Source: a virus
Taxonomy: Duplodnaviria > Heunggongvirae > Uroviricota > Caudoviricetes
Length of the DNA stretch: 12,119 bases
IMG/VR virus record: IMGVR_UViG_2698536618_000022
Coordinates: 1-12,119 of that record
Reading direction: 5' to 3' (one strand)
Shown here: positions 7,099 to 12,042 of the stretch, in pieces
How the letters are laid out: every line of letters begins with the position of its first letter
How positions within the stretch are numbered: the first letter of the stretch is position 1
Translations under genes and position numbers: made by a program
Notes under the pieces: model-generated
The model's input: only the letters and a program-made list of their open reading frames with translations
Databases searched by the model: none
Told to the model about the DNA's origin: nothing

Positions 7099-7243
7099 AG
7101 AAGATTTCCAATAATCAGAACAAGTCGGCTCCTGTTTAGTTACGAGCGACATTGCTCACATAGCAGACTCGTAAATCTGCTATAGGCGCTTATTCGCACC
7201 GCATGACAACATCAAATTTTTCGAGATTACTTTGTCGCAACAA

Positions 7244-7348
7244 TCACTCTTCTACGCGGTCAGCTTTTCTATAATTATCAAATTCGAAATGTTTAATTAC
7301 TTCTTTCGTTTCTCGCTCTATAACTTCAACGATGTATTTCTTATTCAT
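7244..7348 (-). CDS. hypothetical small protein (34 aa)
   Basis: ATG overlaps the stop of the upstream Ead-like gene (TAATG); MNKKYIVEVIERETKEVIKHFEFDNYRKADRVEE; no independent SD, coupling only. Confidence 0.3.
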   Translation of the reverse strand: MNKKYIVEVIERETKEVIKHFEFDNYRKADRVEE

Positions 7349-7884: not shown

Positions 7885-7954
7885 ACGGATAATCCTGGTA
7901 TTGTTCCATCACATCCTGCGGATGCTCTTCGAACTCTTCAAATTCTTCTTCCAT
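7868..7954 (-). CDS. small acidic ORF (28 aa), positional equivalent of lambda orf28
   Basis: ATG with GAGGTG SD 4 nt upstream inside a repeated linker; MEEEFEEFEEHPQDVMEQYQDYPYDYDY; 3' end overlaps the ral start. Confidence 0.4.
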   Translation of the reverse strand: MEEEFEEFEEHPQDVMEQYQDYPYDYDY

Positions 7955-7979
7955 ATATCACCTCAAATAAGTGGTTTGC
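7948..7979. repeat. 32-bp direct repeat DR1, copy 1 (cttccatatatcacctcaaataagtggtttgc); second copy at 8900-8931
   Basis: identical 32-mer at both sites; each carries the SD and start codon (ATGGAAG) of the downstream minus-strand gene; copy 2 also contains the last codons of N. Confidence 0.85.
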
Positions 7980-8009
7980 CGCGAAAAAGTAAAACAAGGA
8001 TACTCACTT

Positions 8010-8276
8010 CTATTTGTCATCGTGTAAGCGACGCAGGTTATTAACTCGCGGCCAGTAATATTTTGGCTTGGCACGAGATCCGGGTCTTGGACCTACACAA
8101 ACTATATAGCTCTCTTCTTTCCTCGGAAGGCCAGGTGCATCTAGCAGACGGCCTAGTTCGAATTTTTTTACGTTGACACCAGGAGGAATCACCTCGACGA
8201 TAAACCCGATTTTTACCTTCGTTACACCGTTTGATGAGCTTGACCATTTAACTTCATCGTTCAATTTGAACTTCAT
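8010..8276 (-). CDS. hypothetical basic protein (88 aa from the ATG at 8276; track ORF starts at a TTG at 8288)
   Basis: ORF with GAGG SD; Lys/Arg-rich (MKFKLNDEVKW...PRPGSRAKPKYYWPRVNNLRRLHDDK). Confidence 0.55.
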   Translation of the reverse strand: MKFKLNDEVKWSSSSNGVTKVKIGFIVEVIPPGVNVKKFELGRLLDAPGLPRKEESYIVCVGPRPGSRAKPKYYWPRVNNLRRLHDDK

Positions 8277-8582: not shown

Positions 8583-8906
8583 TTATGCGGCCTTATCTAC
8601 ATTCCTGAACCAAACGCAGATCGGACCGTCTTCTGTATCGTGAATCGAACCGACAAACCATCCTTCTCCATCTGGCATGCTTGGCTCCCATCCACTGATG
8701 TTTGGATTCCCATCTTCAAAATACGCGTCAATTACCGTTTGATTGTTGTCGTTTCCCATTTCAACAATTGATGATTCAATGCCATGCTGCTTGCAGAAAG
8801 ATCTGAACTCATCAGCTGAAATTACCTCTCTATCCCCAAACAGGTTGGCGTATTCTGGGTGCGTCCAGTAGCCATCCTCGCTTCGCTCTACTACTAATGC
8901 TTCCAT
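8583..8906 (-). CDS. strongly acidic hypothetical protein (107 aa)
   Basis: ATG with GAGGTG SD inside DR1 copy 2; by my count 22 Asp+Glu versus 6 Arg+Lys; first gene after N. Confidence 0.65.
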   Translation of the reverse strand: MEALVVERSEDGYWTHPEYANLFGDREVISADEFRSFCKQHGIESSIVEMGNDNNQTVIDAYFEDGNPNISGWEPSMPDGEGWFVGSIHDTEDGPICVWFRNVDKAA

Positions 8907-8931
8907 ATATCACCTCAAATAAGTGGTTTGC
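8900..8931. repeat. 32-bp direct repeat DR1, copy 2
   Basis: identical to 7948-7979; overlaps the 3' end of N and the start of the acidic ORF. Confidence 0.85.
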
Positions 8932-9214
8932 TGCCTAATTTCATTTTCTGGCGACCAACACAAGTCACACCCATTTCACTGCGTGGCTTGCGGTAGTAAA
9001 TACGGTTCTGTTTACTCTCGACTTCTTCTGCCTTCTTACAGCGAAGGCTTCCGAGTGATGCTGCTTTATCTGCTCTGACGCAACCAGAGAGCTTTAGCGC
9101 AATTTTTCGCGCCAGTCGCTGCTCTTGCATTGCCTGTTCACGTTGAGCCTGTCTGCGTGCTCTGCGGCGATTTCTGGCGTTATCGTCAGCCAGATATGTA
9201 ATGACTACTGTCAT
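8915..9214 (-). CDS. N: N-type transcription antitermination protein (phage-21-like N)
   Basis: 99 aa from MTVVITYLADDNARNRRRARRQAQ (arginine-rich motif); C-terminus ...RIYYRKPRSEMGVTCVGRQKMKLGSKPLI resembles the lambda/phi21 N C-termini as I recall them; GGAGG SD; nutL lies upstream on the same transcript. Confidence 0.85.
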   Translation of the reverse strand: MTVVITYLADDNARNRRRARRQAQREQAMQEQRLARKIALKLSGCVRADKAASLGSLRCKKAEEVESKQNRIYYRKPRSEMGVTCVGRQKMKLGSKPLI

Positions 9215-9254
9215 GTTGACCTCCGGGTAGGTGCACATCCTTTTGTGTCGATGA

Positions 9255-9374
9255 TTATTTGTTTTTGCGTTGCCACATCCAGTCATCTACTTCAGACCAG
9301 ATAGTGAAACCGAAGCCGATGGCGAATGTGTTAACTAAACCACCGAGAATTGGGTTGGTCATGATGTCTAACAT
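9255..9374 (-). CDS. small hydrophobic ORF (39 aa) in the N leader
   Basis: ATG preceded by TGAGGA SD at about 7 nt; MLDIMTNPILGGLVNTFAIGFGFTIWSEVDDWMWQRKNK has one predicted TM segment; not in the ORF track (under 60 aa). Confidence 0.4.
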   Translation of the reverse strand: MLDIMTNPILGGLVNTFAIGFGFTIWSEVDDWMWQRKNK

Positions 9375-9546
9375 TTTCTGTTCCTCAGATGATTAGCTTT
9401 GGTGGTGTGGTAGGTGGGAGACCCATTTCGACCCGCTTCGTCCGACTTCAATTCGGCAATAGTCCCGCAGGCCTCGCCGCTTTACGTGCGACATATTCCC
9501 GTCCATGAACCCTTCACCACACCCCAAAGCCAACTACTCTTTGGTT

Positions 9547-9587
9547 CCCGCATTTCGGCGGGACAATCCCATCAATGTTAAAGAGCC
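9547..9587 (-). promoter_or_regulatory. nutL (boxA GGCTCTTTAACA, boxB hairpin CCCGCCGAAATGCGGG)
   Basis: boxA-like element followed 13 nt later by a hairpin identical to the boxB at nutR; located between PL and N on the minus strand. Confidence 0.75.
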
Positions 9588-9624
9588 TGCCAATCTGTTC
9601 CGTTTGGCTACCAGCGTCCTGCTG

Positions 9625-9715
9625 ATGGCTTAAATTTAAGATCTCTTTAATTAATGGTCAAGAGTATTTTTGAAGAAAACTTAAATTTTCTTTCGTAACT
9701 TAAGTTTGGCTTTGA
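9625..9715 (-). promoter_or_regulatory. PL promoter with OL operators (P22-type 18-bp operators)
   Basis: minus-strand -35 TTGACC (9656-9661), 17-bp spacer, -10 TAAATT (9633-9638); operator ATTTAAGATCTCTTTAAT at 9634-9651 plus two degenerate copies near 9679-9696 and 9698-9715. Confidence 0.6.
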
Positions 9716-9730
9716 TTTTTAAAGGAAATA

Positions 9731-9752
9731 AAAAAAAGGGGCGAATGCCCCC
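9731..9752 (-). terminator. rho-independent terminator immediately downstream of the repressor gene
   Basis: minus-strand hairpin GGGGC-ATTC-GCCCC followed by TTTTTTTTATTTCC. Confidence 0.7.
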
Positions 9753-10403
9753 TTATGGAAGGTTTGCTAGTTTTGCATCGACAACTACGCCGATGATTTT
9801 GCAGTTTCCGTTGATCTCGATCATCGGATATTGTGGGTTAAGTGGTTTTAGAAACTTCCTGCCTGCATCAATAACTAACTTCTTGAAAGTTGCCTCGTTT
9901 TCTCCTTCGAGCTTTGCAACTACCAGTTTCCCGTTACGCGGCTCTACTTCAGGATCGACGAGTATTATCATTCCTTCAGGGATACTGAGACCGGCCGGAG
10001 CCGTCATTGAGTCTCCCTTCACGTCCAACCAAAACGAATCTTCTGAACAGTCTACGGTTGTATCGTACCAGTTATCTATTGCACGCTTATGATATGGTTC
10101 CACAGCTTCCATCCAGCATCCTGCGCTCACCCAGCTAATCAGAGGGTATGACCCTCTTGGATCATGCCTACTGTGATAGGCAATGTTTGAAAGACTTTCC
10201 TCTCCTTTCATCAGATAGTCAGGGGAACACTTCAACGCATTAGCCAGGGCGAGAAGATTCTCTCCATTTGGCTCTGTCTCAGAGCGTTCCCACTGAGATA
10301 TGGCAACATTAGACACGCCGACCATCTTTCCAAGTGCGGCCTGCCTGATCTTGAGTTCTTTTCTCCGAGCGCGAATGCGCTCTCCCATCAATTGAGTTTT
10401 CAT
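9753..10403 (-). CDS. c2: CI-type prophage repressor, P22 C2-like (HTH plus LexA-like S24 autopeptidase domain)
   Basis: 216 aa; MKTQLMGERIRARRKELKIRQAALGKMVGVSNVAISQWERSETEPNGENLLALANAL... matches remembered P22 C2; GDSM serine motif and VVAKL lysine of the S24 catalytic dyad. Confidence 0.95.
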   Translation of the reverse strand: MKTQLMGERIRARRKELKIRQAALGKMVGVSNVAISQWERSETEPNGENLLALANALKCSPDYLMKGEESLSNIAYHSRHDPRGSYPLISWVSAGCWMEAVEPYHKRAIDNWYDTTVDCSEDSFWLDVKGDSMTAPAGLSIPEGMIILVDPEVEPRNGKLVVAKLEGENEATFKKLVIDAGRKFLKPLNPQYPMIEINGNCKIIGVVVDAKLANLP

Positions 10404-11103: not shown

Positions 11104-12042
11104 ATGACAAATACAGCAAAAATACTCAACTTCGGCAGAGGTAACTTTGCCGAACAGGAGCGTAATGTGGCAGATCTCGATGATGGTTACGCCAGACTAT
11201 CAAATATGCTGATTGAGGCTTATTCAGGCGCAGATCTGACCAAGCGACAGTTTAAAGTGCTGCTTGCCATTCTGCGTAAAACCTATGGGTGGAATAAACC
11301 AATGGACAGAATCACCGATTCTCAACTTAGCGAGATTACAAAGTTACCCGTCAAACGGTGCAATGAAGCCAAGTTAGAACTCGTCAGAATGAATATTATC
11401 AAGCAGCAAGGCGGCATGTTTGGACCAAATAAAAACATCTCAGAATGGTGCATCCCTCAAAACGAGGGAGGTTCTCCTAAAATGAGGGACATCCCTCAAA
11501 ACGAGGGAAAATCCCCTAAAACGAGGGATAAAACATCCCTCAAATTAGGGGATTGCTATCCCTCAAAACAGGGGGACACAAAAGACACTATTACAAAAGA
11601 AAAAAGAAAAGATTATTCGTCCGAGAATTCTGGCGAATCCTCTGACCAGCCAGAAAACGATCTTTCTGTGGTTAAACCGGATGCTGCAATTCAGAGCGGC
11701 AGCAAGTGGGGAACAGCAGAAGACCTGACCGCCGCAGAGTGGATGTTTGACATGGTGAAGACCATCGCACCATCAGCCAGAAAACCGAATTTTGCAGGGT
11801 GGGCTAACGATATCCGCCTGATGCGTGAACGTGACGGACGTAACCACCGCGACATGTGCGTGCTGTTCCGCTGGGCATGCCAGGACAACTTCTGGTCCGG
11901 TAACGTGCTAAGTCCGGCCAAACTCCGCGACAAGTGGACCCAGCTCGAAATCAACCGTAACAAGCAACAGGCTGGCGTGACAGCTGGAAAACCAAAACTC
12001 GACCTGACAAACACTGACTGGATTTACGGGGTGGATTTATGA
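11104..12042 (+). CDS. O: replication initiator O (lambda O-like), containing the origin iterons
   Basis: 312 aa; MTNTAKILNFGRGNFAEQERNVADLDDGYARLSNMLIEAYSGADLTKRQFKVLLAILRKTYGWNKPMDRITDSQL... matches lambda O. Confidence 0.95.
   Translation: MTNTAKILNFGRGNFAEQERNVADLDDGYARLSNMLIEAYSGADLTKRQFKVLLAILRKTYGWNKPMDRITDSQLSEITKLPVKRCNEAKLELVRMNIIKQQGGMFGPNKNISEWCIPQNEGGSPKMRDIPQNEGKSPKTRDKTSLKLGDCYPSKQGDTKDTITKEKRKDYSSENSGESSDQPENDLSVVKPDAAIQSGSKWGTAEDLTAAEWMFDMVKTIAPSARKPNFAGWANDIRLMRERDGRNHRDMCVLFRWACQDNFWSGNVLSPAKLRDKWTQLEINRNKQQAGVTAGKPKLDLTNTDWIYGVDL
11451..11620 (+). repeat. ori-lambda-type replication origin inside O: iterons (ATCCCTCAAAACGAGGGA-like, about 6 copies) followed by an AT-rich unwinding region
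   Basis: repeats catccctcaaaacgaggga, ttctcctaaaatgagggac, atccctcaaaacgagggaa, atcccctaaaacgagggat, atccctcaaattaggggat, atccctcaaaacaggggga; then acaaaagacactattacaaaagaaaaaagaaaag. Confidence 0.85.

Follow-up and report, generated by a model that had tools for sequence, protein, structure and literature searches.

A lambda-type N-leader stem upstream of a conserved 39-codon gene for a putative membrane protein in the PL operon of a lambdoid prophage

The closest described counterpart of the leader analysed here is that of phage lambda, in which a stem-loop lies between nutL and N on the leftward early (PL) transcript. As set out in PMC5725501 with reference to Wilson 1997 and 2002, N bound at nutL acts across a 'highly structured' leader to repress its own translation, an effect that is modulated by RNase III; for processing of the N-leader stem, PMC5371410 cites Steege et al. 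1987. The leaders of rrn operons offer a further likeness, which we regard as one of analogy: a boxA/Nus-binding site there leads directly into a long RNase III-type helix, beginning with its 5' arm (PMC4807359), but the rrn helix encloses 16S rRNA, whereas the helix described below would enclose an RNA of about 100 nt. In phage HK620, the PL leader contains an annotated nutL and an N protein (MTVVIT...) that are identical to those of our locus, together with stem arms of the same kind, but its stem-loop is short (75 nt), its interior is of a different type and the small ORF with its 163-nt insertion is absent; the two leaders are thus one cassette swap and one insertion apart.

The window, by which we mean the whole 12,119-nt stretch of DNA that was analysed, is the early region of a P22-like/lambdoid prophage. 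Its leftward operon is read from the minus strand in the order PL (9661-9633), nutL (9586-9547), stem (9531-9395) and first ATG (9374), and PL is the sole sigma-70-like site within 8800-9800. As in lambda, the stem occupies the interval between nutL and the first cistron of the PL transcript, the position expected of a lambda rIII-type stem. The features are as follows:

9753-10403, minus strand: LexA-type repressor ORF with its own terminator
9633-9661, minus strand: PL promoter (TTGACC, 17-nt spacer, TAAATT), just 3' of the repressor gene terminator
9547-9586, minus strand: nutL, read from the sequence, with boxA GCUCUUUAACA at 9576-9586 and the boxB hairpin CCCGC-CGAAAU-GCGGG at 9547-9562
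9395-9531, minus strand: N-leader structured RNA of the HK97/933W/phi80-type allele, a predicted fold with a branched interior of about 100 nt
9515-9531, minus strand: 5' arm of the stem, with a weaker extension that reaches 9544
9395-9412, minus strand: 3' arm of the stem, with a bulged A followed by CCAAAGC
9225-9387, minus strand: inserted 163-nt module comprising a Shine-Dalgarno site, the small ORF and a trailing hairpin, delimited by alignment with loci L331 and L030
9255-9374, minus strand: 39-codon gene for a small hydrophobic protein (MLDIMTNPILGGLVNTFAIGFGFTIWSEVDDWMWQRKNK), PHROG 7482
9234-9247, minus strand: small hairpin CACA-AAAGGA-UGUG, between the stop codon of the small ORF and the N ribosome-binding site
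8915-9214, minus strand: N-like antiterminator gene (MTVVITYLADDNARNRRRARR...), with its own GGAGG site 7 nt upstream

The product of the 8915-9214 gene matches phrog_271 ('anti-termination protein N-like') at E 1e-36 and carries an arginine-rich motif, NARNRRRARRQAQR, near its N-terminus, and on the basis of the family profile match and this motif it belongs with the N proteins; against Pfam N_peptide (PF25694) it scored 18 bits and did not reach the cut-off of 27.9. Homologues of Ral, CIII, Kil and Erf are encoded further downstream, and the rightward genes of the window are Cro, CII and an O-like replication gene (11104-12042). Inside the O-like gene, a run of GAGGGAU / AUCCCUC units at 11478-11565 resembles origin iterons. 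The only Rfam match to the window at E <= 1 was a chance one to snR191 over these same positions, and the interior of the leader stem matched no family.

The earlier note on this DNA had described a near-perfect inverted repeat with arms at 9396-9420 and 9510-9530 around some 89 nt, and had predicted from it a long RNA helix on the PL transcript. Both claims held. The strings that it quoted lie at exactly these positions with 89 nt between them, and a repeat finder reported the overlapping pairs I4 (9399-9411 / 9516-9528, 85% complementary) and I6 (9393-9402 / 9524-9533). The minus-strand RNA from 9545 to 9380 folds with a minimum free energy of -64.4 kcal/mol, compared to a mean of -49.8 +/- 4.2 for shuffled sequences (z = -3.45), of which 1 in 200 folded as well. 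In the predicted structure of the leftward PL transcript, GGCUUUGG-GGUGUGGUG pairs with UACCACACC-A-CCAAAGC to give a closing stem of 16-19 bp with one bulged A and a branched interior, and this helix is kept when the full leader, from the PL start into the small ORF, is folded. The structure is a long (about 16-20 bp), mostly Watson-Crick helix that is specific to the sense strand, the antisense strand folding more weakly by 12.5 kcal/mol and the sense fold containing 7 G-U pairs.

Comparison with other lambdoid phages identified the stem as an element of a known kind. Between nutL and N, lambda carries the arms GGCUUUGGGGUGUGUG...CACACACCACCAAAGCUAAC and the window carries GGCUUUGGGGUGUGGUG...UACCACACCACCAAAGCUAAU, and the interiors alone differ. 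The first 14 nt of the window's 5' arm match lambda exactly, a 17-nt stretch of its 3' arm (CACACCACCAAAGCUAA) is identical in lambda, and the two 3' arms have the bulged A and CCAAAGCUAA in common. The next start codon also follows the stem at a similar distance, 20 nt in lambda and 21 nt in the window. In contrast, the interiors are unrelated in sequence (the 121-nt lambda type versus the 135-nt HK97/933W/phi80 type), and the cistron that follows the stem is N in lambda but the putative small membrane-protein gene in the window. Judged by its arm sequences, the window stem is the form that the lambda N-leader stem takes in this prophage. The earlier note had proposed that about 330 nt between nutL and N were not needed by simpler lambda-like leaders, which has to be corrected: lambda carries its 121-nt stem-loop at the same place, so only the 163 nt that bear the ORF are extra compared with ordinary N leaders.

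The design of the stem is common to P22, 21, HK97, phi80 and HK620, with compensatory changes, and follows the formula GYUUUGG plus 7-10 bp on the 5' side and 7-10 bp plus an unpaired purine plus CCAAAG on the 3' side. When the arms of 14 leaders were aligned, 96% of cells paired as against 86% in shuffles, and compensatory changes occur in 9 of 16 pairs; none of 500 shuffles matched any of the measures, and slid controls were 34-49% paired. This alignment was built by hand from the structure and therefore leans towards it. Covariation of the arms, one of the checks that the earlier note had suggested, was thus found here as well as among the variants of the window allele described below. RNase III cleavage is reported for lambda in the accounts cited above, and by homology we infer that the enzyme would cut the window stem as well. 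Of the readings put forward in the earlier note, an RNase III processing site that controls N translation as in lambda is the best supported, backed by the homology of the arms and by their covariation across lambdoid phages. In all lambdoid leaders examined, the 3' side of the stem also shows one unpaired purine followed by CCA (R-CCA-AAG; window 9396-9403 on the minus strand, lambda L002, P22 L248, 21 L350, HK97 L003, phi80 L004 and HK620 L352), the CCA pairing with UGG of the 5' arm in a manner like a tRNA 3' end.

The interior of the window stem is a widespread allele. The window-type element (~140 nt) was found at 90-97% identity in 119 phage records, with HK97, mEp234, phi80, phi24B, PA2 and many Stx1 and Stx2 phages among its carriers, and in HK97, phi80 and Louie, for which annotated records were retrieved, it sits between nutL and N. 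From IMG/VR we obtained 123 copies, 34 of them distinct, and 25 variants could be aligned without gaps. A structure composed of the outer stem and four inner helices leaves 97.4% of cells paired across these 25 variants, and its covariation score of 0.168 exceeds those of shuffles (0.086) and slid controls (0.02-0.03). Compensatory pairs were located in the outer stem, helix 1 (five), and in the inner helix 63-69/100-106 (three), the latter occurring in the versions CCUGC/GCGGG, CCCGA/UCGGG and CUCGC/GCGAG. Phages with unrelated flanks have almost the same sequence in the 5' half of the interior.

A 46-codon ORF inside the hairpin was considered as a gene and rejected, as five variants carry in-frame stops, the HK97 type is without a start codon and variable columns are spread evenly over the codon positions (21/17/16). 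Phage Louie (L005) has this ORF annotated as a 'hypothetical protein' (CDS0041, 705-839) wholly within the leader hairpin; given the stops in five natural variants and the lack of any codon-position bias, the annotation is probably spurious.

Beyond this allele, the stem interior proved to be a swappable cassette. In 207 IMG/VR elements recovered by the arm motif, constant arms enclose interiors of 76-231 nt that fall into at least 29 unrelated classes (loci include L002, L022, L027, L032, L036, L041, L075, L084, L123 and L131). A nutL/N context identical to that of lambda holds six different interiors, and phage Louie joins lambda flanks to the window-type interior. Rfam searches of 14 and then 6 loci with other cassette classes gave no match for the cassettes. 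A subset of alleles is tRNA-like. The allele at L006 (1101-1182), annotated as 'tRNA-OTHER' by PGAP, has a 15-nt anticodon loop, scores 38.2 bits against RF00005 (threshold 29) and occurs in 2 of 5,426 E. coli genomes. A 146-nt class (L027, about 7890-8036) has a D-like arm, an anticodon-like arm that is long, an additional arm at the variable-arm position and a T arm, GCUGG-UUCGACU-CCAGC, for which the compensatory variant GUUGG-UUCGAUU-CCAAC exists. A third tRNA-like class (L032, about 7118-7283) carries GUGGUUCAAAUCCAC. The phi80 'M3 RNA' is an RNase P substrate.

The window allele shares with a precursor tRNA (RF00005) the end of its stem, an unpaired purine followed by CCA, but it has neither a D arm nor a T arm, and its CCA is paired to the 5' leader; it does not form the tRNA cloverleaf, and ARAGORN found no tRNA gene in the window. 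In the classes of L007, L041, L278, L284, L306 and L309, which have the 5' hairpin AUGCGCAGGCUGAUGCGC, the first hairpin and the last have complementary loops (GCUGA/UCAGC), and L007 carries the compensatory double change GUCGA/UCGAC. This complementarity suggests a loop-loop contact like that of the tRNA elbow, and it is absent from the window allele.

At least one such stem gives rise to a small RNA. P22B, a 96-nt small RNA detected at 642 RPM by small-RNA sequencing of P22-infected cells (PMC13397905), maps to positions 426-521 on the minus strand of the P22 locus (L248), where, in the leader of gene 24, it spans the interior of the stem together with its 3' arm. Its 3' limit lies just past ...ACCAAAGCC, 16 nt ahead of the start codon, and its ends are unlike those of a clean staggered RNase III cut. 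The P22 stem, in the leader of gene 24 (N), is homologous to that of the window although its interior sequence differs, and at least one stem of this kind therefore yields a discrete RNA in vivo. The authors of PMC13397905 made no connection between P22B and the N-leader stem.

The first cistron after the window stem is the 39-codon ORF at 9255-9374, which the earlier note had described as well initiated; it begins with ATG and has GAGG 8 nt upstream, within UGAGGA at 9382-9387. Its product matches PHROG 7482 over its full length (E 3.2e-22), with residues 1-39 aligned to positions 1-39 of the 46-position profile, and belongs to that family. The family includes gp86 of Shigella phage Sf18 (Ounavirinae), a 'putative membrane protein' with 35% identity over 37 aa. 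Both proteins have MLDI(I/M)xNPILxG at the N-terminus, followed by a hydrophobic core and a charged tail that is short, whereas the Ounavirinae members are encoded by virulent phages, are 46 aa long and have no DWMWxRKNK tail. When 1.84 billion representative proteins were scanned with the 39-aa peptide, six matches were returned, three of them at 69-72% identity; in these three, conservation is confined to the 39-residue core, and the upstream extensions proposed by gene callers are unrelated. At 69% identity, 23 of the 39 positions are invariant.

Nucleotide comparisons are those expected of a protein-coding gene. The reading frame, whose conservation the earlier note had proposed to examine, is kept, with 39 codons in all ten distinct nucleotide variants, and divergent pairs show an excess of synonymous change (pS 0.38-0.54, pN at most 0.18, pN/pS 0.13-0.42). 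The ORF occurs with N genes of at least four types and with several different repressors and stem interiors; across ten contexts it always precedes N (10/10) and the leader stem ends just upstream of it in nine. Of the three homologues at 69-72% identity, those of loci L133 and L134 keep the order of repressor, leader stem, ORF and N, and that of L132, a 1.3-kb contig, has another leader. On these comparative grounds we consider the ORF a genuine small-protein gene. The suggestion in the earlier note of a small membrane toxin or exclusion peptide expressed from PL was accordingly borne out in part: the gene is real and conserved and its product hydrophobic (PHROG 7482; pN/pS), but toxicity or exclusion does not follow from these data.

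In GenBank the exact protein appears as an 'uncharacterised protein', with 'putative membrane protein' and 'hypothetical protein' as other names, and a one-residue-class variant is present on 800 contigs, for which some annotators likewise chose 'putative membrane protein'. The gene is rare, being present in 31 of 5,426 complete E. coli genomes, and RefSeq/PGAP annotation covers it in none of the 31 carriers (for example, NZ_CP172145.1, 3725982-3726159). Searches of sequenced phage isolates gave no high-identity copy, those of plasmids no match, and those of species-representative genomes no true relative of the peptide, one partial match there being spurious; no Pfam, NCBIfam or PADLOC model matched it. 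Residues 4-26 form a glycine-rich hydrophobic stretch whose best 19-residue Kyte-Doolittle mean, 1.44, is borderline for a membrane helix. By this prediction, the product would have one hydrophobic helix followed by the conserved DWMWxRKNK tail and is most likely an inner-membrane protein with its basic tail in the cytoplasm, the basic C-terminus (RKNK) suggesting an N-out, C-in orientation.

Alignment with related leaders shows that the ORF module is an insertion between the stem and the N ribosome-binding site. Loci L331 and L030 have the same stem arms and N family as the window and are missing exactly 9225-9387 (163 nt), the insert lying between ...AAAGCUAAUCAUC and GGAGGUCAACAUG. Direct repeats of the octamer TAATCATC flank the insertion at 9388-9395 and 9250-9257. 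The ATG of the small ORF is placed 21 nt past the stem, at the N start site of lambda (20 nt). Between the stem and the ribosome-binding site of N lies an insertion hotspot, with no insert in HK620, the 163-nt module in the window and an insert of its own in CUS-3 (L351, about 700-910), which is an unrelated AT-rich sequence of ~270 nt with the hairpin CCCCGUCUAAUUGGCGGGG. At the position of the small hairpin 9234-9247, relatives carry GCACAAGGAUGUGC or GACACACAUUCAUGUGUGUC, and L006 and L007 have another hairpin without GGA. This hairpin, in relatives GCACAAGGAUGUGC, resembles the high-affinity motif of CsrA (ACARGGAUGU, its GGA being placed in the loop); a second GGA falls in the N Shine-Dalgarno site downstream of it.

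The explanation that we favour, and think probable, is that the leader consists of a lambda-type RNase III stem placed before an inserted 39-codon membrane-protein gene, with N behind it. On this model, the leftward early transcript from PL would carry nutL followed by a 137-nt folded RNA closed by the inverted repeat. By homology with lambda, an RNase III cut would free the downstream message from nutL and from the looped-back N-Nus-polymerase complex that acts as translational repressor. In the minimum free energy fold, pairing within the stem extension mostly occupies the two G residues of GAGG (unpaired probability 0.07), so the cut would also expose the ribosome-binding site. The stem interior would be released as a discrete small RNA, and the small protein, then N from its own site 40 nt further on, would be translated as immediate-early products. 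The ORF starts at N's usual distance from the stem and therefore probably inherits both immediate-early expression and the translational control of the leader. Because PL is repressed in the lysogen, the peptide would be made only on infection or induction, when it would probably act at the inner membrane. Since the gene holds the one lambdoid position that is expressed before antitermination, its product is a candidate immediate-early host-directed factor.

A different weighting of the same observations, which we regard as possible but well short of probable, makes control of N secondary and sees the lambdoid N-leader stem as a dock for interchangeable RNA cargo. As infection begins, RNase III, or for tRNA-like alleles RNase P, would cut out this cargo, which would serve in trans as a decoy, a sponge or an anti-defence RNA (for example, against tRNA-targeting or RNA-sensing defences), the adjacent membrane protein then being a second immediate-early host-directed factor. 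The 29 or more unrelated interiors between constant arms, six of them in a lambda-identical context, argue for it, as do the tRNA-like alleles, the near invariance of the 5' half of the window-type interior despite unrelated flanks and the accumulation of P22B as a discrete RNA (PMC13397905). The window allele itself, however, matches no Rfam family and is not tRNA-like, and the diversity of interiors could simply reflect weak constraint on any fold that joins the arms, combined with recombination at the conserved arms. We also considered that the inverted repeat might matter at the DNA level alone, as a mosaic recombination boundary or a protein-binding palindrome: the arms are sharp mosaic junctions at which interiors switch abruptly, as when Louie joins lambda flanks to a window-type interior. 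Against this, G-U pairs and compensatory changes keep the pairing on the PL-sense strand only, which makes a role confined to DNA very improbable. The same low probability applies to a transcription terminator, a function that we rejected for the stem, as no U-run follows it (UAAUCAUCUGAGG comes after) and no terminator-like site was reported there.

For the ORF, we considered that translation itself, rather than the peptide, might tune N or shield the transcript from Rho in cis. Its location 40 nt upstream of N on the same transcript and the conserved small hairpin between its stop codon and the N ribosome-binding site would fit such a role, but purifying selection on the peptide (23 of 39 positions invariant at 69% identity; pN/pS 0.13-0.42) and the presence of family members in virulent Ounavirinae, where they lie among small early-type genes with no adjacent N gene, make it unlikely. 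We give least credence to the proposal of the earlier note of a type I toxin-antitoxin-like module, in which the ORF would encode the toxin and an antisense RNA would be its partner. A small hydrophobic peptide with a charged tail does recall toxins of the Hok, Ldr or TisB type, but no plus-strand promoter-like or terminator-like site was found in 8800-9800 from which an antisense partner could be expressed, PADLOC gave no match, and the ORF is the sense cistron of a repressor-controlled PL operon that always occupies the same leader position, beside at least four N types.

Overall, the preferred reading of an RNase III-type stem before an inserted gene joins a known kind of element, present here as a common allele, to a real but unannotated gene in a new arrangement. 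The 39-aa gene is an example of a small protein overlooked by standard RefSeq annotation, and the stem brings a very common allele, that of HK97, phi80 and 933W-like Shiga-toxin phages, under the lambda model of N autoregulation. If the interchangeable interiors act in trans, they would constitute an unrecognised class of phage non-coding RNA in a very well-studied regulatory region.
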